From: a phage
Sequence record: PZ019083.1
Length of the DNA stretch: 41,142 bases
Strand: one strand, 5' to 3'
The translations under genes were made by a program, and so were the position numbers. Below, piece after piece: positions 3,314-41,142 of the stretch. Below the pieces are notes generated by a model that was not told the origin of the DNA, made no database searches, and saw nothing but the letters and a program-made list of their open reading frames with translations. Every line of letters starts with the position of its first letter. Positions within the stretch are counted from its first letter, which is position 1.

Positions 3314-3323
3314 GTTCACCTAT

Positions 3324-3345
3324 AGCCCCGAAAGGGGCTTTCTTA
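3324..3345 (+). terminator. intrinsic terminator (AGCCCC-GAAA-GGGGCT + T-run)
   Basis: Perfect GC hairpin followed by T-rich tract after portal stop. Confidence 0.6.
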
Positions 3346-4887: not shown

Positions 4888-4892
4888 ACTGA

Positions 4893-4913
4893 AGCCCCGA
4901 AAGGGGCTTTTTA
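4893..4913 (+). terminator. intrinsic terminator
   Basis: AAGCCCC-GAAA-GGGGCTT hairpin followed by TTTTT. Confidence 0.6.
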
Positions 4914-6438: not shown

Positions 6439-7407
6439 ATGTCTCTGTCAGATATGAAGGTTTATAACGACGATATCGTCGGTACCACTATCGAACTGCT
6501 TGGTCAGAAAACTGACCAGTTTAACGCGGCCTCTGGTGGGGCAATTGTACTGTCTACCGCTTCATGGCGCGGTGACTTCTCCCGTGAGTCTTTCTTTAAC
6601 CAGATTGCCTCAGCTAAACGCCGCGTTGACCGTTACGCGGCTATCGCCTCTCAGGCCGCTACCGCTCTGACTCAGGGAGAGCATGTAGGCGTTAAAGTCG
6701 CTGGCGGCTTCGGTCCAGTACTGTTCGAGCCTGCGCAAATGACCTGGCTGAACGAAGACCCGGCAAGCGCGATTCGTGCTATTTCAGAAGGCTTCTCTGA
6801 CGCACTGTTGGCAGACCAGCTTAACACTGCTGTTGGTGCTGCGGTTGCCGCGGTATCCGGTCAGACCGCACTGGTTAACGACGTATCTGCGTCCGCGGGC
6901 CTGTCCCTGAACGTGCTGAACAACAGCCACGCTAAATTCGGCGACCAGTCTCAGTTGCTGATTACCGACATCATGACTGGCGCGGCTTACCACACTCTGG
7001 TAGACAAAGCGCTGACCAACGCAAACCAGCTGTTCGTTGCCGGTAACGTTATGGTTGTCGATGTTCTCGGTAAGCGTTACGTAATCTCCGACATCCCTGC
7101 GCTGTACGAAGCTGGTACTCCGAACAAGACTAAGGTCCTGTCCGTAGTTGCAAACGGCATCATCGTTGACAATGCTTCTGACATTATCAGCAACATTGAC
7201 ACCAGCAACGGTAACACCCGCATCCAGACCACCTGGCAGGCGGACTACAGCTTCGGCCTGAAACTGAAAGGCTATAGCTGGGATGCTACCAACGGCGGTA
7301 AATCTCCGCTGGATGCAGAACTGTTCACCGCATCCAACTGGGACAAAGCTGTTGCCGAGAACAAGCACACCCTCGGTACTCTGGCAATCGCTGACGCAGA
7401 CCTGTAA
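6439..7407 (+). CDS. major capsid protein
   Basis: 322 aa ORF with strong RBS, after scaffold, followed by strong terminator. Confidence 0.7.
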   Translation: MSLSDMKVYNDDIVGTTIELLGQKTDQFNAASGGAIVLSTASWRGDFSRESFFNQIASAKRRVDRYAAIASQAATALTQGEHVGVKVAGGFGPVLFEPAQMTWLNEDPASAIRAISEGFSDALLADQLNTAVGAAVAAVSGQTALVNDVSASAGLSLNVLNNSHAKFGDQSQLLITDIMTGAAYHTLVDKALTNANQLFVAGNVMVVDVLGKRYVISDIPALYEAGTPNKTKVLSVVANGIIVDNASDIISNIDTSNGNTRIQTTWQADYSFGLKLKGYSWDATNGGKSPLDAELFTASNWDKAVAENKHTLGTLAIADADL

Positions 7408-7635: not shown

Positions 7636-8148
7636 ATGCCGCTAATCGTGGAAGATGGGTCGATAGTACCTGATGCCGACAGTTACGTTAGTCTGGCTGA
7701 CGCCCGCGCGTTAGCGGCTAATTATGGTCTTGAGCTACCTGCAGACGATACTGCCGCGGAGGTGGCCCTGCGCAACGGTGCTACTTATGTTGGGCTTGCG
7801 GAGCCGCAGATGTGCGGTCGCCGTGTATCCGCCGAGCAGTCTCTGGCATACCCACGTACCGGAACAACACTAAACGGCTTCACCGTAGCTGATAATGTTA
7901 TTCCGTCGCAGTTAATCCGGGCGCAAGTAATCGCTGCTGTTACGTACGGCGTAGGTACGGATGTTCGGGCTAACTCTGATGGACGTTCCGTGCAGACCGA
8001 ACGTGTCGAGGGTGCGGTGACAGTGACCTACTTCAACAACGGCAACAGTGGCGCTACAACCGCCATCACCGCTGCGGACGACGCCTTACGCCCGTTACGG
8101 TGCGGCGGCCTCAATAATGGCTTCTCATTTAACGTGTACCGGGGTTAA
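7636..8148 (+). CDS. head-tail connector / adaptor protein
   Basis: 170 aa, position after capsid gene. Confidence 0.45.
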   Translation: MPLIVEDGSIVPDADSYVSLADARALAANYGLELPADDTAAEVALRNGATYVGLAEPQMCGRRVSAEQSLAYPRTGTTLNGFTVADNVIPSQLIRAQVIAAVTYGVGTDVRANSDGRSVQTERVEGAVTVTYFNNGNSGATTAITAADDALRPLRCGGLNNGFSFNVYRG

Positions 8149-11098: not shown

Positions 11099-11102
11099 AA
11101 CT

Positions 11103-11126
11103 AAGGCCCCGAAAGGGGCCTTTTTC
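11103..11126. terminator. bidirectional intrinsic terminator
   Basis: AAGGCCCC-GAAA-GGGGCCTT flanked by A-run and T-run, between convergent operons. Confidence 0.6.
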
Positions 11127-12744: not shown

Positions 12745-12773
12745 ATAGTACCCTATTATATTGGGGTGTGCAA
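12745..12773 (-). promoter_or_regulatory. sigma70-type promoter TTGCAC-17-TACTAT (class A) driving the antisense accessory operon
   Basis: Near-identical to promoters at 34294 and 35511. Confidence 0.55.
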
Positions 12774-12881
12774 GTAATGTGATAGAATAATTTTGCGCCT
12801 AGTGTCGCACACGAAAAGCGGGTGGTTCCCGTCTGGCGCATTTACCGTTAACCTGTAACCTCTTAACCAAAGGATTAAAGA

Positions 12882-22818: not shown

Positions 22819-22831
22819 TTGACCTAAAACT

Positions 22832-22854
22832 AAGGCCCCAAACGGGGCCTTTTC
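22832..22854. terminator. bidirectional intrinsic terminator
   Basis: AAGGCCCC-AAAC-GGGGCCTT + T-run, between convergent late (+) and replication (-) operons. Confidence 0.6.
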
Positions 22855-23481: not shown

Positions 23482-24903
23482 TTATCGTTTCCTTCTCTTC
23501 ATATAATTAAGTAGTTCGTCCTGTACAGACCTTTTCTCGTCTGTACGCGCGGCGACAACTTCATCAAGAGTATTTCGGGCTATTATTTGATAAATGAATA
23601 CAGACCGTTTGTATCCAGATTGCATCTGCCTTACCGGGCCTATACGCTCGATAACCTGCAGATAATGTTCCAGGTTCCACCCCTGACTAATAAATGCCAT
23701 GTGGTGTCCGCCATGTTGTAGCGACAGCCCGTGGCCCGCAGAAGCTGGGTGTATCAGGAGCATAGGTATCTCACCGCGGTTCCACGCTTCCATCTGCTTA
23801 TTGCCCTTAGCACCTTTTGCAAATGCCTGTGCTTGGGGGAATCGCTTAAGGATGCGCTCCAGTTCGTGCTTGAACTGATAGGCGACCAGTAACGGCGCAC
23901 CCTGTAACTCCTCAACAATTGACTCAAGCGCATCCAGTTTCGTGTCGTGCACTTTCTCCCATTCTTTGGTTGCTTCGCCGTCTTCGCCCGTCACATACAC
24001 AGCACCGGAAGCAATCTGCAAGCACTTAGCCGTTTTAGCGGCGGCGTTGGCGGCCTGCACCTCCCCACTCTCCAGTTCCGCGATTAACTTTTTCTCCATG
24101 TCGTCGTACGCCTGACGCGCTTTCTTCGGCAGGTCGATTTCAACCGGTACAATAATCGGCGCTTCACAACCAAACCACTCGGCGGGGTCGATGGTCAGGC
24201 TGATGTCTTTCATCTTCTGATGAATCTCATTATCGGCACCAGGTCGCGCGTGATATTCACGCGCCATAGCCGACTTACCTTTCTGTACCGAGTTAAACCA
24301 GCGGTCGGTGAATGCTGTGTACGATGAACCGAGTCGCTCACCGGCGTCGATAAACCAGTTCTGACCCCACAAGTCTTTGAGGCCGTTTGGCGACGGCGTA
24401 CCAGTCAGGTTGATGAAACGCCTAACCTTACCGAACGCCACTTTACTAAGCGCCTTTGCTCGCTTGCTTCCGCCAGAACGGCTACGGAATGATTTAAGCT
24501 TCGTGCTTTCATCAGCAACAATAACGGTAAAAGGCCAGTCGTCTTTGCCGTAGTAGTCAATCAGCCACTCGATAACCTCGTAGTTGGTGCATACCACGTT
24601 AGCGTCTGACTCCAGAGCCGCGATGCGGCGCTTCTCCGAACCTGTTGCATCGGCGACACTCAGACACGGGAAACCCCACTTAGTTTGTTCTGCGGGCCAC
24701 GTACCAGACGCAACGCGCAACGGGGCAAGGATTAACACGCGGTCCTCTTCGGTAAGCTGCCCGTTGCGAAACAGTCGGTTGAGCACCCACATAGTAGAGG
24801 AGGTTTTACCCCCTCCCATGCCGCACCAGATATTACAGCGAGGGTGTTGCAACATGAACGAAGTCATGAGCTTCTGGTATTCACGCCTTTGAAACTTACT
24901 CAT
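23482..24903 (-). CDS. SNF2/DEAD-like superfamily 2 DNA helicase
   Basis: Walker A GMGGGKT, DExx box VADEST, helicase C-terminal motifs. Confidence 0.8.
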   Translation of the reverse strand: MSKFQRREYQKLMTSFMLQHPRCNIWCGMGGGKTSSTMWVLNRLFRNGQLTEEDRVLILAPLRVASGTWPAEQTKWGFPCLSVADATGSEKRRIAALESDANVVCTNYEVIEWLIDYYGKDDWPFTVIVADESTKLKSFRSRSGGSKRAKALSKVAFGKVRRFINLTGTPSPNGLKDLWGQNWFIDAGERLGSSYTAFTDRWFNSVQKGKSAMAREYHARPGADNEIHQKMKDISLTIDPAEWFGCEAPIIVPVEIDLPKKARQAYDDMEKKLIAELESGEVQAANAAAKTAKCLQIASGAVYVTGEDGEATKEWEKVHDTKLDALESIVEELQGAPLLVAYQFKHELERILKRFPQAQAFAKGAKGNKQMEAWNRGEIPMLLIHPASAGHGLSLQHGGHHMAFISQGWNLEHYLQVIERIGPVRQMQSGYKRSVFIYQIIARNTLDEVVAARTDEKRSVQDELLNYMKRRKR

Positions 24904-25121: not shown

Positions 25122-25406
25122 CTAACTATAATAGTTAGCTATTAGGTCGTCAACCTGTTTAAACGAACCAACGACAAAAACATTCGCGCCACGTTTACGC
25201 ATCCGCGCGTGTTCACGTAGCTGGTGCGGGTCTGGCTTCGTGTTTTCGTCTTTCTTAACCTCGACGAACCAGACTATGCCGCCGGGGAGAATTACCAGCA
25301 GGTCAGGAGCGCCTGAGCGCCCCTCGTAAGACAGCTTACGAACGAGGCCACCAATGGCCTCGAACATCTCTTTTGCGTATTTCTGAATCTTGCCTTCCGG
25401 GGTCAT
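25122..25406 (-). CDS. VRR-NUC domain nuclease
   Basis: Motif GAPDLLVILPGGIVWFVEVK typical of VRR-NUC PD-(D/E)XK fold. Confidence 0.65.
   Translation of the reverse strand: MTPEGKIQKYAKEMFEAIGGLVRKLSYEGRSGAPDLLVILPGGIVWFVEVKKDENTKPDPHQLREHARMRKRGANVFVVGSFKQVDDLIANYYS
25125..25153 (-). promoter_or_regulatory. sigma70 promoter TTGACG-17-TATAGT (class B) embedded in 3' end of VRR-NUC gene
   Basis: Same architecture as promoters at 28680 and 30799. Confidence 0.5.
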
Positions 25407-28679: not shown

Positions 28680-28708
28680 ACTATAATAGCTAACTATTCA
28701 GGTGTCAA
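28680..28708 (-). promoter_or_regulatory. sigma70 promoter TTGACA-17-TATAGT (class B)
   Basis: Consensus -35, 17-bp spacer containing GAATAGT element. Confidence 0.6.
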
Positions 28709-30798: not shown

Positions 30799-30827
30799 AC
30801 TATAATAGCGAACTATTCACATGTCAA
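30799..30827 (-). promoter_or_regulatory. sigma70 promoter TTGACA-17-TATAGT (class B), overlaps operator repeat R1
   Basis: Consensus hexamers; spacer carries ACTATTCACATGTCAA. Confidence 0.6.
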
Positions 30828-30855
30828 TGGGCTTTTCTAAAATAATTAATATGGT

Positions 30856-30871
30856 ACTATTCACATATCAA
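30856..30871 (+). promoter_or_regulatory. operator repeat R2 (ACTATTCACATATCAA) overlapping -10 TACTAT of the Cro-like gene promoter
   Basis: 15/16 identical direct repeat of 30812-30827, 44 bp apart. Confidence 0.45.
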
Positions 30872-34293: not shown

Positions 34294-34322
34294 TTGCACA
34301 CCCCAACATAATAGGATACTAT
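34294..34322 (+). promoter_or_regulatory. sigma70 promoter TTGCAC-17-TACTAT (class A)
   Basis: Near-identical to 35511 and 12745(-); ACTATTC copies at 34285 and 34318. Confidence 0.55.
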
Positions 34323-34356
34323 TCACTTATCGGAACGAGACAGAGGAGTGAGGGTT

Positions 34357-35720: not shown

Positions 35721-35982
35721 AAGCTACACCGTTACCGTTGATTTTGAGGGGCTGGAGTTGCCCCTCCCGAACAACTACCGATATATCTCACGTGACCGTT
35801 TCGGTTTTATCCAGGCGTGGAGGAACAAGCCAACAGACACTGAGTTCGGGATGTCAGGCGGAGAAGAGTTGCCGATCACTTTCGGGCATCAGAGTAGTCA
35901 CGACGAACTTAAAACTGTGATTCGTAAGTATCGCCGCCGAGGTAACACCGGGCTTATAGCTATAACCGGCGCTGTTGAGTAA
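35710..35982 (+). CDS. hypothetical protein (90 aa)
   Basis: Overlaps upstream ORF by 11 nt. Confidence 0.4.
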   Translation: MNFRSYTVTVDFEGLELPLPNNYRYISRDRFGFIQAWRNKPTDTEFGMSGGEELPITFGHQSSHDELKTVIRKYRRRGNTGLIAITGAVE

Positions 35983-36001
35983 ACGAGAGGAGAGACAGAA
36001 G

Positions 36002-36520
36002 ATGGGTAACAAAAACGAAGTATTTGAGTACCTGATTGACCAACTACGGCAGCAGGTAAACAGCAACCAGTGTGAAGACCTGGCGCACGAGGTGCAGTCA
36101 CTTAAGAATCAGTTACGTGATGCTTCGGCGCTGGTGGCCGAGTTACAGCGAGAGCTGCAACATCAGATTGACCTGGCGTCGGGTGTGTATAGATGGTCTA
36201 CCGCACATTTCGACGAGAAAGGTAAAGTCACCAAGGTCGAGAGTGGGGTTAAGACAGAGCAATCCGGTTGCCGTAAAGAAGACGTGCAGGAATGTGAGAA
36301 CGATTGGGTTGAGTTTCACGGTTTGTTTATTGCAGAGGGGGACCTGCGAAATGAACCTGGGTATACCTTCTGCCGTAAATGCGGGCTGAAAGAATACTCC
36401 CGTAAATGTGAACATGAATGGTCCATGGTAACTGGCGACGGCCCAAGTTTCTATGAGTGCGATGTGTGCGGAGCCCGTAGTAAAGATTTACCGTACGACT
36501 TACGGTGGTTGGCACTATGA
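36002..36520 (+). CDS. hypothetical protein with coiled coil and C-terminal zinc-ribbon-like Cys pairs
   Basis: GAGGAGAG RBS; CRKCG ... CDVCG. Confidence 0.45.
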   Translation: MGNKNEVFEYLIDQLRQQVNSNQCEDLAHEVQSLKNQLRDASALVAELQRELQHQIDLASGVYRWSTAHFDEKGKVTKVESGVKTEQSGCRKEDVQECENDWVEFHGLFIAEGDLRNEPGYTFCRKCGLKEYSRKCEHEWSMVTGDGPSFYECDVCGARSKDLPYDLRWLAL

Positions 36521-36722: not shown

Positions 36723-36905
36723 ATGGTTGCTCGTAAAGGCTTTTATGAAGATGGTCATTTCGATAGCAAAGTAAACGGTGAATACGTCACATACGAAGAC
36801 TACGCGAAACTTGAAGCCGAGTTACAGAAATACAAAGACCAGTTCCCGGATTACGTCGAGTGCGCGAACTGTGGGTCAGTTACACATGTGGAGGGGGTGG
36901 AGTGA
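36723..36905 (+). CDS. hypothetical protein (60 aa) with CxxC
   Basis: GGAGAAG RBS 5 nt upstream of ATG. Confidence 0.4.
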   Translation: MVARKGFYEDGHFDSKVNGEYVTYEDYAKLEAELQKYKDQFPDYVECANCGSVTHVEGVE

Positions 36906-37198
36906 TGTCTCTGGCTACTGATATCCTGAAACGTAGCGGCCTCGCGCCGCTGTCACCGAGAGCGAACACCCGGATATACAAGCGCCGCCGTAATGCGCTG
37001 TACCCTGAGATTCAGGCCAGGCGCAAAGCGGTACGCGCCTGTGGATTCCAGAACGGGAAGGCCGTGAATCTTAGTGAGTTTAAAACCCAGGAACGCGCAG
37101 CAATCGCTAATCGGTTATTTAATTACTGGAAGTCGCTGGGGTACGATGATATTCCAACGAAACCACAGAGACGACAATACATCTGGCGTCATAAATAA
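36905..37198 (+). CDS. hypothetical basic protein (97 aa)
   Basis: TGATG coupling. Confidence 0.4.
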   Translation: MSLATDILKRSGLAPLSPRANTRIYKRRRNALYPEIQARRKAVRACGFQNGKAVNLSEFKTQERAAIANRLFNYWKSLGYDDIPTKPQRRQYIWRHK

Positions 37199-37847: not shown

Positions 37848-38310
37848 TGGATTGCATTTTACCTCTGCATTTGAGGGATTCCGCGGAACTGCGTATCGTG
37901 CTACCCCAAACGAGAAGTACCTTACTATTGGGTACGGACATTACGGGCCGGACGTAACCCCGGGTAAGACCATCACACCGGGGCAGGGCTTGCTGTTACT
38001 GAATCGCGATATGGCTAAGGCTGTAGCTGCGGTTGACGCGGCAGCACACCATTCGCTGACACAGGCACAGTTTGATGCAGTGTGCGACCTGGTCTATAAC
38101 GCGGGTGCTGGTGTGATTGCAGCTACTACAGGCACGGGTAAGGCGCTGCGTTCTGGTGATATTGCAACGCTGCGGGCTAAGCTGGCGCTGTTTATCAACC
38201 AGAACGGCAAACCGTTACTCGGCCTGCGTCGCCGTACAGCCGGACGCCTTGCACTGTTCGACGGTAAACCGTGGCAGGAGGCTGAGGCTATTGGGAGGGC
38301 TGTTAAATGA
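37825..38310 (+). CDS. endolysin, lysozyme-like (glycoside hydrolase, T4/lambda-type fold)
   Basis: Motif FEGFRGTAYRATPNEKYLTIGYGH with catalytic Glu context; GTG start after GGAGGA. Confidence 0.65.
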   Translation: MSRNISDNGLHFTSAFEGFRGTAYRATPNEKYLTIGYGHYGPDVTPGKTITPGQGLLLLNRDMAKAVAAVDAAAHHSLTQAQFDAVCDLVYNAGAGVIAATTGTGKALRSGDIATLRAKLALFINQNGKPLLGLRRRTAGRLALFDGKPWQEAEAIGRAVK

Positions 38311-38455
38311 TGGAAGAGAACTGGGACGTATAGTACAATTGCAGCGCCGCTTGTGCTTGCGAAGGATTGAAGTGATGATGGACGAATACGAAGGCGTTTA
38401 GTAAACTTACATCACGCTGCTTGTGCTTGCACCACCCCGAAACCCGGACCCCGAA

Positions 38456-38484
38456 ACCCGGACCGCGAATCCGGGTTTTATTTT
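38456..38484 (+). terminator. intrinsic terminator
   Basis: ACCCGGA-CCGCGAA-TCCGGGT + TTTTATTTT. Confidence 0.55.
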
Positions 38485-38613
38485 GCCCGCAGTTTGATAG
38501 ACTAACGGCAACAGAAGATTAAACAACATTGAGGGCACTCCGGGTATCATCACCCTCATGGACCTGTAACAAGGTCTGGCCAAAGTGCGGTAACGCGTGC
38601 CGGAGAATCTCTG

Positions 38614-38642
38614 TTGACACCTAAGACTAATCCGACGATACT
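38614..38642 (+). promoter_or_regulatory. candidate promoter TTGACA-17-GATACT
   Basis: Consensus -35, 4/6 -10. Confidence 0.35.
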
Positions 38643-38648
38643 TAAATC

Positions 38649-38714
38649 ACCTCCTGTTCCATCCCTCTACTCTCCAGTTTTATCCCGGCCCTGACCCAGC
38701 CGGGATTTTTTTTT
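38649..38714 (+). ncRNA. candidate short RNA (about 65 nt) ending in strong terminator
   Basis: Promoter-like site upstream, TCCCGGC-9nt-GCCGGGA hairpin + T9; carries ATCACCTCCT. Confidence 0.25.
38683..38714 (+). terminator. intrinsic terminator
   Basis: 7-bp GC stem, 9-nt loop, nine consecutive T. Confidence 0.65.
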
Positions 38715-38736
38715 ATTTATTTTCTGCAATGACTAG

Positions 38737-38765
38737 TTGACTATTACCTTCGACCCTATTATATT
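38737..38765 (+). promoter_or_regulatory. sigma70 promoter TTGACT-17-TATATT
   Basis: Near-consensus hexamers upstream of gene at 38800. Confidence 0.55.
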
Positions 38766-38799
38766 TACTGCATCGACAACGAGAACGGAGTAGAGAGAA

Positions 38800-38940
38800 A
38801 TGAGAATTTACAAGGTTGAGCTTCACGGTAAAGTACTTGGTCATTATAACTTTGGCGAGTACATCTCCGCCGATTGCGCACGTGACATCCTGATTAGCGA
38901 AGGTTTTAGTCAATACATCAAAGTCACGGAGATTAAATAA
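38800..38940 (+). CDS. hypothetical protein (46 aa)
   Basis: GGAG RBS; not in ORF track (under 60 aa). Confidence 0.4.
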   Translation: MRIYKVELHGKVLGHYNFGEYISADCARDILISEGFSQYIKVTEIK

Positions 38941-39089
38941 TGAAAATCACAGATACCGAAGCATTCAAAGACGCACAACTGATGGCACGCATCGCCGTTA
39001 GTAACCTGAGCAACAGCATTCCGGCTGACGCGTTCTGGTTCGCTGCGATGCAGACACTGAAAGCAGCTTATGCAGGAGAGAAGAAATGA
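38940..39089 (+). CDS. hypothetical protein (49 aa)
   Basis: Start-stop overlap TAATG. Confidence 0.35.
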   Translation: MKITDTEAFKDAQLMARIAVSNLSNSIPADAFWFAAMQTLKAAYAGEKK

Positions 39090-39247
39090 GCGAACAAGGT
39101 CAAGTAAGCCAGCCATTACGAGTAGGCCGTAAAGTAAATCACACCCCGTTCCCAACACGCGAGGAACTGATGAAACGTAACGGTTTCCCTGGGCCAGACA
39201 AGAACAAGTATCTCAATCGCATGTGGGGAGAGCGTAAAAATGACTGA
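39086..39247 (+). CDS. hypothetical protein (53 aa)
   Basis: ATGA overlap. Confidence 0.35.
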   Translation: MSEQGQVSQPLRVGRKVNHTPFPTREELMKRNGFPGPDKNKYLNRMWGERKND

Positions 39248-39425
39248 CCGCGACTACGAAAAGATGATGGTAGAGGCCGTTAACAGCGGCATAGACATTG
39301 GCCACGTGATGCACGTCCTGAATACTAAAATCGCGGTAGCCGAGCAAATGGTAGAGTCGCTATATGAGACGCGCCGCGAGCTGATTAACCGCTTCAACCT
39401 GAACAAAGGTGACACCAATGCCTAA
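39240..39425 (+). CDS. hypothetical protein (61 aa)
   Basis: ORF track; overlaps upstream by 8 nt. Confidence 0.4.
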   Translation: MTDRDYEKMMVEAVNSGIDIGHVMHVLNTKIAVAEQMVESLYETRRELINRFNLNKGDTNA

Positions 39426-39666
39426 AATAACAATCGCATCACTCGAGCGCCGTATTCTGGTGCTTGAGTCAGAGAAACAGACGTTAGGCGGGCAACTGTC
39501 AATTAACGGTGAGTACCAGTTAGCCGCATTTAAGGTTCTTCTCATGTTGTTGAGAGGAGAAGAGGAAAAGATGAACGCCTGCGAGCATGATTACCGCCTG
39601 CATTTAGTTGATGGGGTACATCGAGTCACATGCTTAAAATGTGGTAAAGCGTATGGAGTCGCCTGA
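39418..39666 (+). CDS. hypothetical protein with C-terminal Cys/His cluster
   Basis: CEHDYRLH ... CLKCG. Confidence 0.4.
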   Translation: MPKITIASLERRILVLESEKQTLGGQLSINGEYQLAAFKVLLMLLRGEEEKMNACEHDYRLHLVDGVHRVTCLKCGKAYGVA

Positions 39667-39835
39667 GCCGGTAGTTATTGACGGTGTCCTGTGGAAACCT
39701 TACTCGGTTAACCACATCGACGCCGACGGGAAGAAGTTCAGCTTCTACATTTTTGCAATTAGCCGTGAGCACGCCGCCTGTGTGGTTGACGATATACGAG
39801 AAACGGCGTGGCTTGGTGATGAGATAGTGGGGTGA
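39653..39835 (+). CDS. hypothetical protein (60 aa; start uncertain, GTG 39641 possible)
   Basis: ORF track frame. Confidence 0.3.
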   Translation: MESPEPVVIDGVLWKPYSVNHIDADGKKFSFYIFAISREHAACVVDDIRETAWLGDEIVG

Positions 39836-39839
39836 GAGT

Positions 39840-39932
39840 ATGAGTCTTGAGGTTGTTATTGGTCTTGTAGCCACCGGTTATTTTATCGGCGTATTGATTG
39901 GCTTTCTGTGGGGTAAAGACAGTGTTCAGTGA
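39840..39932 (+). CDS. 30-aa single-TM peptide
   Basis: MSLEVVIGLVATGYFIGVLIGFLWGKDSVQ. Confidence 0.3.
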   Translation: MSLEVVIGLVATGYFIGVLIGFLWGKDSVQ

Positions 39933-40092
39933 CATCAACGCAGCAATCGAAGAAGCAATCTGGCGTCGCTACAATGGCGAGCAACAGCGGCACTTTTGCC
40001 TCGTGCAACGCGGTAACATGGTTGCCGCGTTGCAGGACCGCGATAACAAATACCCGAATGCGATGTGGACAACGAGGAATTTCTTAGGATGA
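39898..40092 (+). CDS. hypothetical protein (start uncertain, GTG 39922 possible)
   Basis: ORF track. Confidence 0.3.
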   Translation: MAFCGVKTVFSDINAAIEEAIWRRYNGEQQRHFCLVQRGNMVAALQDRDNKYPNAMWTTRNFLG

Positions 40093-40286
40093 AACATTTC
40101 TTAATTGGTTTCAATTGGGCGGACAATACCGGACGTAGTGGTTTCGGGAATAGCGAACGTACACCTACCAACGGCGATAAATTTACATACGACGAACTAA
40201 GGAAAATTGAACAGAGCATCGCAAAGTCTCTCCCCTACGGTGCCGAAGTGATTATTCTTAGCGTATCGGAGATTGCCGCAGAATGA
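40089..40286 (+). CDS. hypothetical protein (65 aa)
   Basis: ATGA overlap with upstream stop. Confidence 0.3.
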   Translation: MKHFLIGFNWADNTGRSGFGNSERTPTNGDKFTYDELRKIEQSIAKSLPYGAEVIILSVSEIAAE

Positions 40287-40519
40287 TTACCAGCATTCCT
40301 AACCTGATTAAAGAATTCGGCACGATGGCGGAGACATGCCGACAAACCGGCATCAACGAAATGACGATTGCGAAGTACAGCAAAGACGTGAACTGCGAGC
40401 GCCACGTAATTTATAACAACCGTCTCATGACGCACGTTAAGACAAGCCCGGTATTATTCACGCGCCGTGGTATCACTAAAACAGAGCAACGCATTGCTAA
40501 AGAGGAGAGCGGAGAATGA
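40283..40519 (+). CDS. hypothetical protein, possible HTH (78 aa)
   Basis: ATGA overlap; segment CRQTGINEMTIAKYSKD. Confidence 0.35.
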   Translation: MITSIPNLIKEFGTMAETCRQTGINEMTIAKYSKDVNCERHVIYNNRLMTHVKTSPVLFTRRGITKTEQRIAKEESGE

Positions 40520-40698
40520 TTGAGGTTTTAGAGTTTCTTAGCCGTTTTGGAAATAATGTATTTATTATGGCGTTCGCATGGGCGCTTATATCAAGTTGGT
40601 CTGTAGTGAAGCAACTACCAAAGATTCAATTATGGATGATTGTTGGTGGGTTATATGTATCTGGTATCGCGGGCATCCTTTTGTGGTTTTTCAAATGA
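40516..40698 (+). CDS. small membrane protein (2 TM)
   Basis: GGAG RBS, ATGA overlap, hydrophobic helices. Confidence 0.4.
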   Translation: MIEVLEFLSRFGNNVFIMAFAWALISSWSVVKQLPKIQLWMIVGGLYVSGIAGILLWFFK

Positions 40699-40796
40699 GA
40701 TTATTAATCATCCCTAACGCCTGGACCATTCCTGTAGCTAACGACCATTACGGCGGCGATGGTAAAAGAGCGCCACGACACGGCCTGTATAACTGA
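40695..40796 (+). CDS. hypothetical protein (33 aa)
   Basis: ATGA overlap. Confidence 0.25.
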   Translation: MRLLIIPNAWTIPVANDHYGGDGKRAPRHGLYN

Positions 40797-40810
40797 TTGG
40801 AGAGTAAGAG

Positions 40811-41032
40811 ATGAAAATTCAGCTAATATCAGATGATGATGTTATGAATTGTGTAGGTAAGATGCACCACGGAGAGCCTACTTATTACATCCGTAACGTA
40901 TTAAAATACACATATCCGAATTTAGACACACCATCAGTTCTCCGTAAGCTTAAGGATATGGAGAAAAGAGGCCTCGTAAAGCGAACTAAAAGTCCGCTCT
41001 TCAAAAATAACATAACCTGGACCTCGGTATAG
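40811..41032 (+). CDS. hypothetical protein (73 aa)
   Basis: GGAGAG RBS; followed by terminator. Confidence 0.45.
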   Translation: MKIQLISDDDVMNCVGKMHHGEPTYYIRNVLKYTYPNLDTPSVLRKLKDMEKRGLVKRTKSPLFKNNITWTSV

Positions 41033-41041
41033 CCGCTACTT

Positions 41042-41063
41042 GCCCTCTACGGAGGGCTTTTCT
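41042..41063 (+). terminator. intrinsic terminator
   Basis: GCCCTC-TACG-GAGGGC + TTTTCT. Confidence 0.55.
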
Positions 41064-41142
41064 GTACATCCCGCCCAATCCCCTTATATAATCCATTTAG
41101 ACGCGTAGGGCGCGTCTGGTGCGCTCTGATGGTCAGACGCAT

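Follow-up and report, generated by a model that had tools for sequence, protein, structure and literature searches.

A conserved promoter-to-terminator unit of Guernseyvirinae phages is a candidate small RNA gene

The block downstream of the lysis genes

The window analysed here, a 41,142-bp stretch of phage DNA (record PZ019083.1), is a near-complete genome of the genus Kagunavirus (subfamily Guernseyvirinae) with the small terminase gene at its start; its closest relatives are the Escherichia phages Ivi, EcoPhCCP1 and the K1G group. Following the gene order of annotated relatives, the + strand carries small early open reading frames (ORFs), two holin genes and an endolysin gene ending at 38310, after which comes the region of a promoter, P1, that is the subject of this report. 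A cassette of very small ORFs (38800-41032) and then the terminase and structural genes lie 3' of it, and the replication genes are on the - strand. A conserved block at 38613-38796 consists, in order, of P1, a sequence specifying a C/U-rich unstructured RNA of ~60 nucleotides (nt), a terminator, a second promoter (P2) and a 5'-untranslated region (5'UTR). An initial annotation had marked the interval from P1 to the terminator (38614-38714) as a candidate short RNA. Here we report a comparative analysis of the block, on the basis of which we tentatively read this interval as a small RNA (sRNA) gene.

A 211-nt query of the block matches 445 phage records, 382 of which cover at least 80% of the query, with an identity of ~95% within Kagunavirus and ~76% in the genus Jerseyvirus. 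The relatives that carry it are phages of E. coli and Salmonella (more than 400 records), and further copies are found in IMG/VR and in metagenome contigs. Searches of IMG/VR with terminator and 5'UTR patterns returned only Kagunavirus and Jerseyvirus variants and unrelated terminators, with no more distant homologs. Homology begins exactly at the -35 hexamer of P1 irrespective of the DNA upstream, which makes P1 part of the module, and it stops at the Shine-Dalgarno (SD) sequence of the following gene. Because the ORF behind the 5'UTR differs from phage to phage, we regard the module as a conserved regulatory cassette ahead of a variable accessory-gene slot. It would be a compact and portable arrangement of promoter, sRNA, terminator, promoter and strong invariant 5'UTR, behind which variable accessory genes are swapped. 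In the records inspected the 185-bp module is unannotated, called a terminator or given spurious small ORFs; the record of phage Ent1, for instance, labels the site only as "putative rho-independent terminator". No tRNAs were found, and the literature on Guernseyvirinae contained nothing on promoters, sRNAs or transcriptomes beyond automated predictions.

Promoters, terminator and fold

The TTGACA-17-GATACT promoter proposed in the initial annotation lies where it had been placed, and all 12 hexamer positions of P1, together with the 17-nt spacing, are the same in Kagunavirus and Jerseyvirus. Divergence between the two genera was computed from a MAFFT alignment for each segment of the module (Table 1). 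Since hexamers and spacing are effectively invariant and the spacers have diverged, we argue that both promoters are in use. The 5'UTR behind P2 is the most conserved segment of the module outside the hexamers, though the ORF that follows it changes; it may serve as a portable leader for strong translation initiation, or as a binding site for a regulator.

The GC-rich stem and nine T described at the end of the unit were confirmed, the stem being of 8 bp in place of the 7 first counted: A38682-C38689 pairs with G38699-U38706, with six G-C pairs and a 9-nt loop. The RNA of the unit folds into 33 unpaired nt at the 5' end followed by this hairpin (-13.8 kcal/mol, z = -2.6). One stem pair covaries, being C:G in 10 sequences and U:A in 7, and no pair is broken. 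Among relatives the T-run measures 7-14, with at least seven T in every one, and the T9 of the window is the sole run of seven or more T or A on either strand of the 41 kb. Genes of Hfq-binding sRNAs have terminators with more than seven T, most other terminators usually having fewer than six, and the module that binds Hfq combines a hairpin and a 3' poly-U tail with a U-rich sequence internal to the RNA (PMC4509938). The unit has each of these elements, in conserved form, 3' of the region predicted to be single-stranded. A different use of the DNA, as paired operator sites flanking P2, was considered and rejected, since the varying length of the T-run keeps neither their spacing nor their helical phase.

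A coding explanation had been thought weak, and it found nothing to sustain it on either strand. On the + strand the RNA contains no start codon, the sole ORF beginning at a TTG within the -35 hexamer, and indels of 1-4 nt between the genera disrupt every frame. On the minus strand a look-alike of an SD and ATG (GGAGAG-N7-ATG) lies upstream of AGGAGGTGAT; its mini-ORF reads MEQEVI* in the window and MNKQEQV* or longer, unrelated peptides in Jerseyvirus, and has no predicted promoter. A small protein gene was rejected for both strands, as no ORF has a frame that is conserved among the relatives. This look-alike, P2 with its hyper-conserved 5'UTR and the Hfq-type 3' module are all absent from the initial annotation.

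Rfam 15 yielded no family at the gathering threshold. The best match below it, RF02278 (24.7 bits against a gathering score of 50, E = 0.002), covers only the terminator and the preceding UCUCC and skips the internal hairpin of the family. Both RF02278 and anti-hemB, the best sub-threshold matches, align at the terminator and were set aside as terminator look-alikes.

It is very likely, from the comparison of relatives, that an independent short non-coding transcription unit is present here. We judge the unit to be real because of the comparative evidence, that is, the 445 records, the invariant hexamers, the covariation and the sole long T-run, and not because of statistics. The candidate short RNA first annotated is thereby upheld in its conserved promoter, strong terminator and lack of a conserved ORF, the transcript itself being a prediction. 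The reading that we favour, and put forward tentatively, is that the interval from P1 to the terminator forms a complete gene of its own, specifying a ~60-nt non-coding RNA with the architecture of an Hfq-type sRNA, conserved across the Guernseyvirinae (Kagunavirus and Jerseyvirus). As such, the unit most likely represents a previously undescribed phage sRNA family.

In this sRNA reading, the near-consensus P1 would be used by the sigma-70 RNA polymerase of the host, with a start near A38649 and termination ~60 nt further on, at the 8-bp hairpin and its poly-U tract. The RNA would comprise an unstructured, pyrimidine-rich 5' seed (5'-terminal (A/G)C(C)UCCUG, CAUCCCUCU and CUCC), a U-rich stretch, the terminator hairpin and a tail of at least seven U. 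The seed would pair with purine-rich ribosome-binding sites (RBSs) of particular mRNAs and so block the initiation of translation; the targets would more probably be host than phage mRNAs, and competition for Hfq might be an additional effect. We infer production of the RNA, its exact 5' end, Hfq binding, targets and early timing; the timing is suggested by the host-type, near-consensus character of the promoters and by the small, variable ORFs of the cassette behind them. Phages of Kagunavirus and Jerseyvirus, which are widely isolated, serve in therapy and biocontrol against E. coli and Salmonella. To our knowledge, temperate phages and prophages are the source of nearly all phage sRNAs characterised so far; this RNA, if made, would be an sRNA shared by a whole subfamily of virulent enterobacterial phages, and a tractable case of RNA-based host takeover. 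If the unit is an insulator or attenuator only, it would belong to routine phage transcription architecture.

Table 1. Features of the conserved module and their divergence between Kagunavirus and Jerseyvirus
Feature	Position	Strand	Description	Divergence between genera
P1	38614-38642	+	TTGACA 38614-38619, 17-nt spacer, GATACT 38637-38642; 10/12 consensus match	0-0.01 (P1 and P2 hexamers)
P1 spacer				0.45
P1 discriminator				0.66
ATCACCTCCT, 10-nt identity to 16S 3' tail	38646-38655	+	only 38649-38655 (ACCUCCU) predicted to be transcribed	
Predicted small RNA, ~58-66 nt	38649-38714	+	start A38649 predicted from -10 spacing; 3' end within T-run	
C/U-rich region				0.43 (alignment partly misregistered by indels)
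CATCCCTCT, core in single-stranded region	38660-38668	+	same in Kagunavirus and Jerseyvirus consensus	
Third C/U motif, CTCTCC	38670-38675	+	3' of CATCCCTCT	
Internal U-rich stretch (UUUU-A)	38678-38681	+	directly 5' of hairpin; UUUUA in Kagunavirus (38678-38682 here), UUUA in Jerseyvirus	
5' stem arm				0.13
Intrinsic terminator	38682-38714	+	stem 38682-38689/38699-38706, loop 38690-38698, T9 38706-38714	
P2	38737-38765	+	TTGACT 38737-38742, 17-nt spacer, TATATT 38760-38765; 10/12 match	0-0.01 (P1 and P2 hexamers)
P2 spacer				0.35
P2 5'UTR (AUCGACAACGAGAACGGAGUAGAG...), 28 nt	38772-38799	+	SD GGAG 38787-38790, ATG 38800	0.046 (0.3-0.45 in neighbouring non-hexamer DNA)

The 5' region and its possible pairing partners

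Transcription is predicted to start at A38649, a purine 7 nt past the -10 hexamer, by the usual 7-nt spacing rule; Jerseyvirus has G at the equivalent position. The candidate RNA had first drawn attention through a 10-nt identity, ATCACCTCCT, to the 3' tail of 16S rRNA (the anti-SD sequence). This identity is present in the DNA, but given the predicted start the RNA carries the 7-nt ACCUCCU and not the full 10 nt, three bases (AUC) probably lying upstream of it. Moreover, the 10-mer belongs to Kagunavirus, where nearly all copies have it, and Jerseyvirus has (C/T)GCTCCTG instead. The window contains one exact copy; with up to one mismatch 1.44 matches are expected (at least one in 75 of 100 shuffles), and for the 8-mer CACCTCCT the expectation is 0.75. 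Taken by itself, the 10-mer does not exceed chance expectation.

The 5' region was compared across ~86 loci, which reduce to 19 haplotypes of the discriminator and 5' region (13 Kagunavirus, 6 Jerseyvirus). In Kagunavirus it reads ACCUCCUG-(Y3)-CAUCCCUCU(A/G)CUCUCCAGUUUU, and in Jerseyvirus GCUCCUG-(CUUAUU or UUGAUU)-CAUCCCUCUAGCUCCUUU. Common to both genera are the 5'-terminal CUCCUG, the CAUCCCUCU core, CUCC, richness in pyrimidines, the lack of structure and the U-rich stretch before the hairpin. Within each genus, variation in the region is lowest in the 5' heptamer or octamer, ACCUCCUG being unchanged in 12 of the 13 Kagunavirus haplotypes and GCUCCUG (+1 to +7) in all six of Jerseyvirus. 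Just 5' of this invariant stretch the Jerseyvirus discriminator exists in four versions, so that constraint appears to resume at the predicted start. Pyrimidines make up 27 of the 33 nt of the 5' region in Kagunavirus, and the Jerseyvirus region is similarly rich despite indels; three anti-SD-like motifs fall inside 27 nt. These patterns are real but modest evidence for selection on the sequence of the RNA itself.

The idea of an RNA that exposes an anti-SD sequence thus holds to the extent that the 5' end is anti-SD-like in both genera; nothing, however, indicates a global mimic of the 16S 3' end. Such a mimic, if abundant, would reprogramme translation broadly by titrating either SD sequences or a factor recognising the 16S tail. 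In its favour are the 10-nt match in the DNA, of which 7 nt are predicted for the RNA, the three clustered motifs, the shared, little-varying 5' CUCCUG and the duplexes of -18 to -26 kcal/mol predicted with many SD-containing sites. However, the extended identity to GAUCACCUCCUUA is confined to Kagunavirus, Jerseyvirus retaining just CUCCU, and AUC is probably 5' of the start. A match of 5-7 nt arises by chance, the + strand of the genome holding CCTCC 18 times and CTCCT 20 times, and for one sRNA to titrate all cellular SD sites stoichiometrically seems to us quantitatively implausible. We consider a global mimic very improbable. Least probable of all is a version of it in which virulent Guernseyvirinae express, from one of their strongest host-type promoters, an abundant RNA that imitates the anti-SD tail and competes with ribosomes for SDs, or acts as a decoy for a factor or defence nuclease recognising the 16S 3' end, so that translation in infected cells would favour the phage. 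The initial interpretation is therefore partly supported: it was right in kind, the 16S identity being a genus-specific and partly untranscribed detail.

Pairing partners were sought with RNAduplex scans of six whole phage genomes, each with its own version of the sRNA. The nearest candidate is the first gene behind P2, whose SD and AUG the C/U segment could pair with (GGAGUAGAG...AUG against CAUCCCUCUACUCUCC), either in trans on the P2 mRNA or inside read-through transcripts from P1, thereby silencing the first gene of the cassette. Minimum free energy folds of hypothetical read-through transcripts place the 5' region on this RBS in both genera (-38.2 kcal/mol, z = -1.7 for the window; -44.4 kcal/mol, z = -4.1 for SS3e), both genera have a predicted duplex of about -20 kcal/mol, and the 5'UTR is so strongly conserved although the ORF behind it varies. 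Nevertheless, predicted pairing with phage SD regions, which the initial annotation had envisaged, turned out to be generic: the P2 RBS ranks 15-43 among ~100 SD-containing start-like sites in the six genomes. RNAalifold does not recover the helix and there is no covariation. Variants on either side change independently, the 5'UTR forms GGAGTAGCG, GGAGTAGGC, GGAGTATAG and GGGGTAGAG coexisting with an unchanged sRNA and the sRNA forms CATACC, CCTATGCGC and CCATCT with an unchanged 5'UTR. Specific pairing with the adjacent RBS was rejected on its ordinary rank, the lack of covariation and the RNAalifold result, and local regulation of this gene by the unit is improbable.

Two further candidates in the window were set aside. 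The RBS of the ORF at 40811-41032 pairs at -23 kcal/mol, but none of the other loci examined has the gene. Along its whole length this RBS, AACUGAUUGGAGAGUAAGAGAUG (40785-40813), is similar to the reverse complement of the sRNA, and the product of the ORF has a weak match to MarR-like winged-helix proteins. Pairing with the RBSs of the lysis genes is weak (-12 to -14 kcal/mol). A composite pattern, AGAGGGATG-N2-7-CAGGAG, was also searched for in genome contigs. Mostly unrelated genomes appear among the matches listed, with a single E. coli match that lies inside an ORF, which we take to be a yagK/yfjJ-like cryptic-prophage gene.

Several results weigh against reading the unit as an sRNA gene. 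No phage mRNA target is conserved in the six scans, the top duplex falling in a different gene in each genome: within the helicase gene in the window, in the tape-measure region in Bas72, at the helicase RBS in SS3e, antisense to the tailspike gene in LSPA1 and in the portal gene in Ent1. The best site in the window (24053-24080, - strand, inside the DNA helicase gene 23482-24903) forms 15 consecutive pairs, two of them G-U, at -38 kcal/mol, a value equalled by 1 of 80 dinucleotide shuffles; it ranks fourth in Bas72 and is missing from the top matches in K1G. We rejected it as a chance match to a conserved stretch coding for ELESGE, unmatched by the Jerseyvirus sRNAs. A BLAST search of the sRNA against 5,426 E. 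coli genomes gave no match of at least ~20 nt. The core is altered in 5 of the 13 Kagunavirus haplotypes (CATACC, CACACC, CATTCC, CCATCT and CCTATG), and the remainder of the 5' region, beyond the core of 9-10 nt and the 5' heptamer, has diverged between the genera as much as the promoter spacers. No transcript data for any relative were found in the literature. Finally, P2, a second strong promoter, begins 23 nt past the T-run, so that the terminator doubles as an insulator, and in most relatives this same terminator certainly also ends the lysis operon.

The unit in its operon and among described RNAs

The last two points raise a plainer explanation, in which hairpin and T-run end the lysis operon and shield P2, the RNA sequence has no function of its own, and P1 acts through polymerase binding or transcription itself (as a roadblock, by supercoiling or by boosting P2 through leakage). 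The endolysin stop abuts or overlaps the P1 -35 hexamer in Jerseyvirus and most Kagunavirus, where the terminator is the first one after the lysis genes. Much of the RNA body is conserved between the genera no better than the spacers, and a terminator-then-promoter junction recurs at 41042-41092. This explanation, however, gives no reason for the perfect conservation of the P1 hexamers and spacing, if the transcripts are useless, or for the constraint that resumes at +1 after a variable Jerseyvirus discriminator. It likewise leaves unexplained why pyrimidine richness and lack of structure are kept through indels, and why the sRNA-type tail of 7-14 U with a preceding U-rich stretch occurs on this terminator alone. 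Moreover, phages of the K1G type and of the type of the window keep the unit despite a separate terminator 5' of P1 (38453-38484 here). We regard a purely insulating role as unlikely.

That separate terminator is part of an insert of 0.15-0.3 kb between the endolysin gene and P1, found in the window and in K1G-type phages. In the window the insert (38311-38612) is mosaic, occurs in only ~45 Kagunavirus records, carries the direct repeats GCTTGTGCTTGC and CCCGAAACCCGGAC (two copies each) and has no unusual fold (z = -1.1). The second junction (GCCCTCTACGGAGGGC-TTTT, then TGTACA-18-TATAAT) stands just 5' of terS; its terminator and that of the module bracket the small-ORF cassette (38800-41032).

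The position of the unit also suggests a regulated leader or attenuator like PR'-tR' of phage lambda. P1 would be constitutive and its transcripts would stop at the terminator until a phage or host factor renders polymerase terminator-resistant; transcription from P1 would then pass this terminator and those of the downstream small-gene and structural operon, and the short RNA would be mainly a by-product. The small-ORF, terminase and structural genes are indeed preceded by a short leader between a strong promoter and a strong terminator. Strong intrinsic terminators stand at 3324, 5187, 11103, 13437 and 22832 in the structural region (1-22.8 kb), which has no + strand promoter of at least 10/12 match, so that a read-through mechanism is plausible. 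StxS, the short PR'-tR' transcript of Stx phages, which binds Hfq and regulates rpoS in trans as well as the adjacent stx1 (PMC7547250), is a precedent for such leaders and shows that they can be sRNAs as well. Against an attenuator, Pfam and PHROGs searches of 21 small or early proteins detected no antiterminator of the Q, N or any other family, curated relatives have none annotated, and the two best candidate proteins have no sequence match in PDB, these being sequence-level searches. No -10-like pause element is conserved in the initially transcribed stretch (the only candidate reads TACTCT here, TGCTCT in most Kagunavirus, TAGCTC in Jerseyvirus), and the terminator is the only hairpin of the leader, with nothing like boxB or put. 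The adjoining P2 would express the operon without read-through, and a further pair of terminator and promoter stands before terS at 41042-41092. We hold an attenuator to be doubtful, if the most credible of the alternatives.

The structural operon is punctuated by a repeated, partly bidirectional terminator family, GCCCCGAAAGGGGC, at 3320-3344, 4889-4913, 11101-11125 and 22830-22854. Two early proteins of the window could be assigned to no family, a basic protein of 112 amino acids (36860-37198) with the arginine-rich stretch RIYKRRRNALYPEIQARRKAVRA and one of 181 amino acids with a coiled coil and a zinc ribbon (35975-36520); by sequence, no known antiterminator matched either of them.

Returning to the sRNA reading, the unit can be set beside several kinds of described RNA. 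Like StxS, its closest phage precedent, and lambda 6S RNA, it is phage-encoded, with a strong promoter and an intrinsic terminator tens of nt further on, directly 5' of a long operon. Unlike them, it has no detected Q antiterminator or sigma-dependent pause element, a second promoter follows its terminator, and there is no sequence similarity; furthermore, its phages are virulent siphoviruses in which the lysis genes lie upstream rather than downstream. With the Hfq-dependent sRNAs that have a 5' seed, such as RybB and OmrA/B, and with the SgrS/RyhB type of 3' module, it shares a length of ~60-90 nt, a GC-rich terminator hairpin preceded by a U-rich stretch, and at least seven U at the 3' end; its 5' end is predicted to be single-stranded and is conserved in part. 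It differs from them in being phage-borne and in having no homology, and it is of Hfq type by predicted architecture.

Type I 3'UTR-derived sRNAs such as DapZ and MicL have their own promoter at the end of the upstream gene and share its terminator. The unit is comparable in that the endolysin stop abuts or overlaps the P1 -35 in most relatives, so that sRNA and lysis mRNA would share one terminator there, whereas the window and K1G-type phages have the terminator-bearing insert before P1. C/U-rich sRNAs with anti-SD motifs, namely the Betaproteobacteria toxic sRNA family RF02278 and the staphylococcal RsaE and RNAIII with their UCCC loops, resemble the unit in carrying pyrimidine motifs complementary to RBSs. 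Their C-rich motifs, however, lie in hairpin loops, and those of the unit lie in a linear 5' region.

Another set of promoters was noted on the - strand of the window. A near-consensus sigma-70 family (TTGACA-17-TATAGT) occurs at 25125-25153, 28680-28708, 30799-30827, 30842-30871 and 34309-34333, with a common spacer that contains the inverted repeat GAATAGT...CTATTAT. It resembles the "phage promoter" consensus that PHIRE gave for fBC-Eco01, tgAATAGTa-ccTATTat-T (PMC9825357), and could be an operator-bearing set for the replication genes.

One Kagunavirus contig (L041 81-180, IMGVR_UViG_3300015181_000003) carries a 100-nt insertion exactly between the -10 hexamer of P1 and CACCTCCTG. Perfectly matched inverted repeats of 13 nt (TTAGGCGAGTAGT...ACTACTCGCCTAA) bound the insertion, whose fold is a long hairpin (z = -3.5); the insertion matches no Rfam family, and IMG/VR holds no second copy. 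Unrelated IMG/VR contigs (L306 ~7990-8095, L314 ~12760-12870, L317 and L318 ~7250-7360) contain another promoter-to-terminator unit, for which there is no Rfam match. Its first hairpin covaries (GTAGCT...AGCTAC against GTAGATG...CATCTAC) and is accompanied by a single-stranded CUACUCUCC(UU) and a terminator of the same type, UUAUCCCGGC...GCCGGGAUUUUUUU; it may be a separate phage sRNA family.

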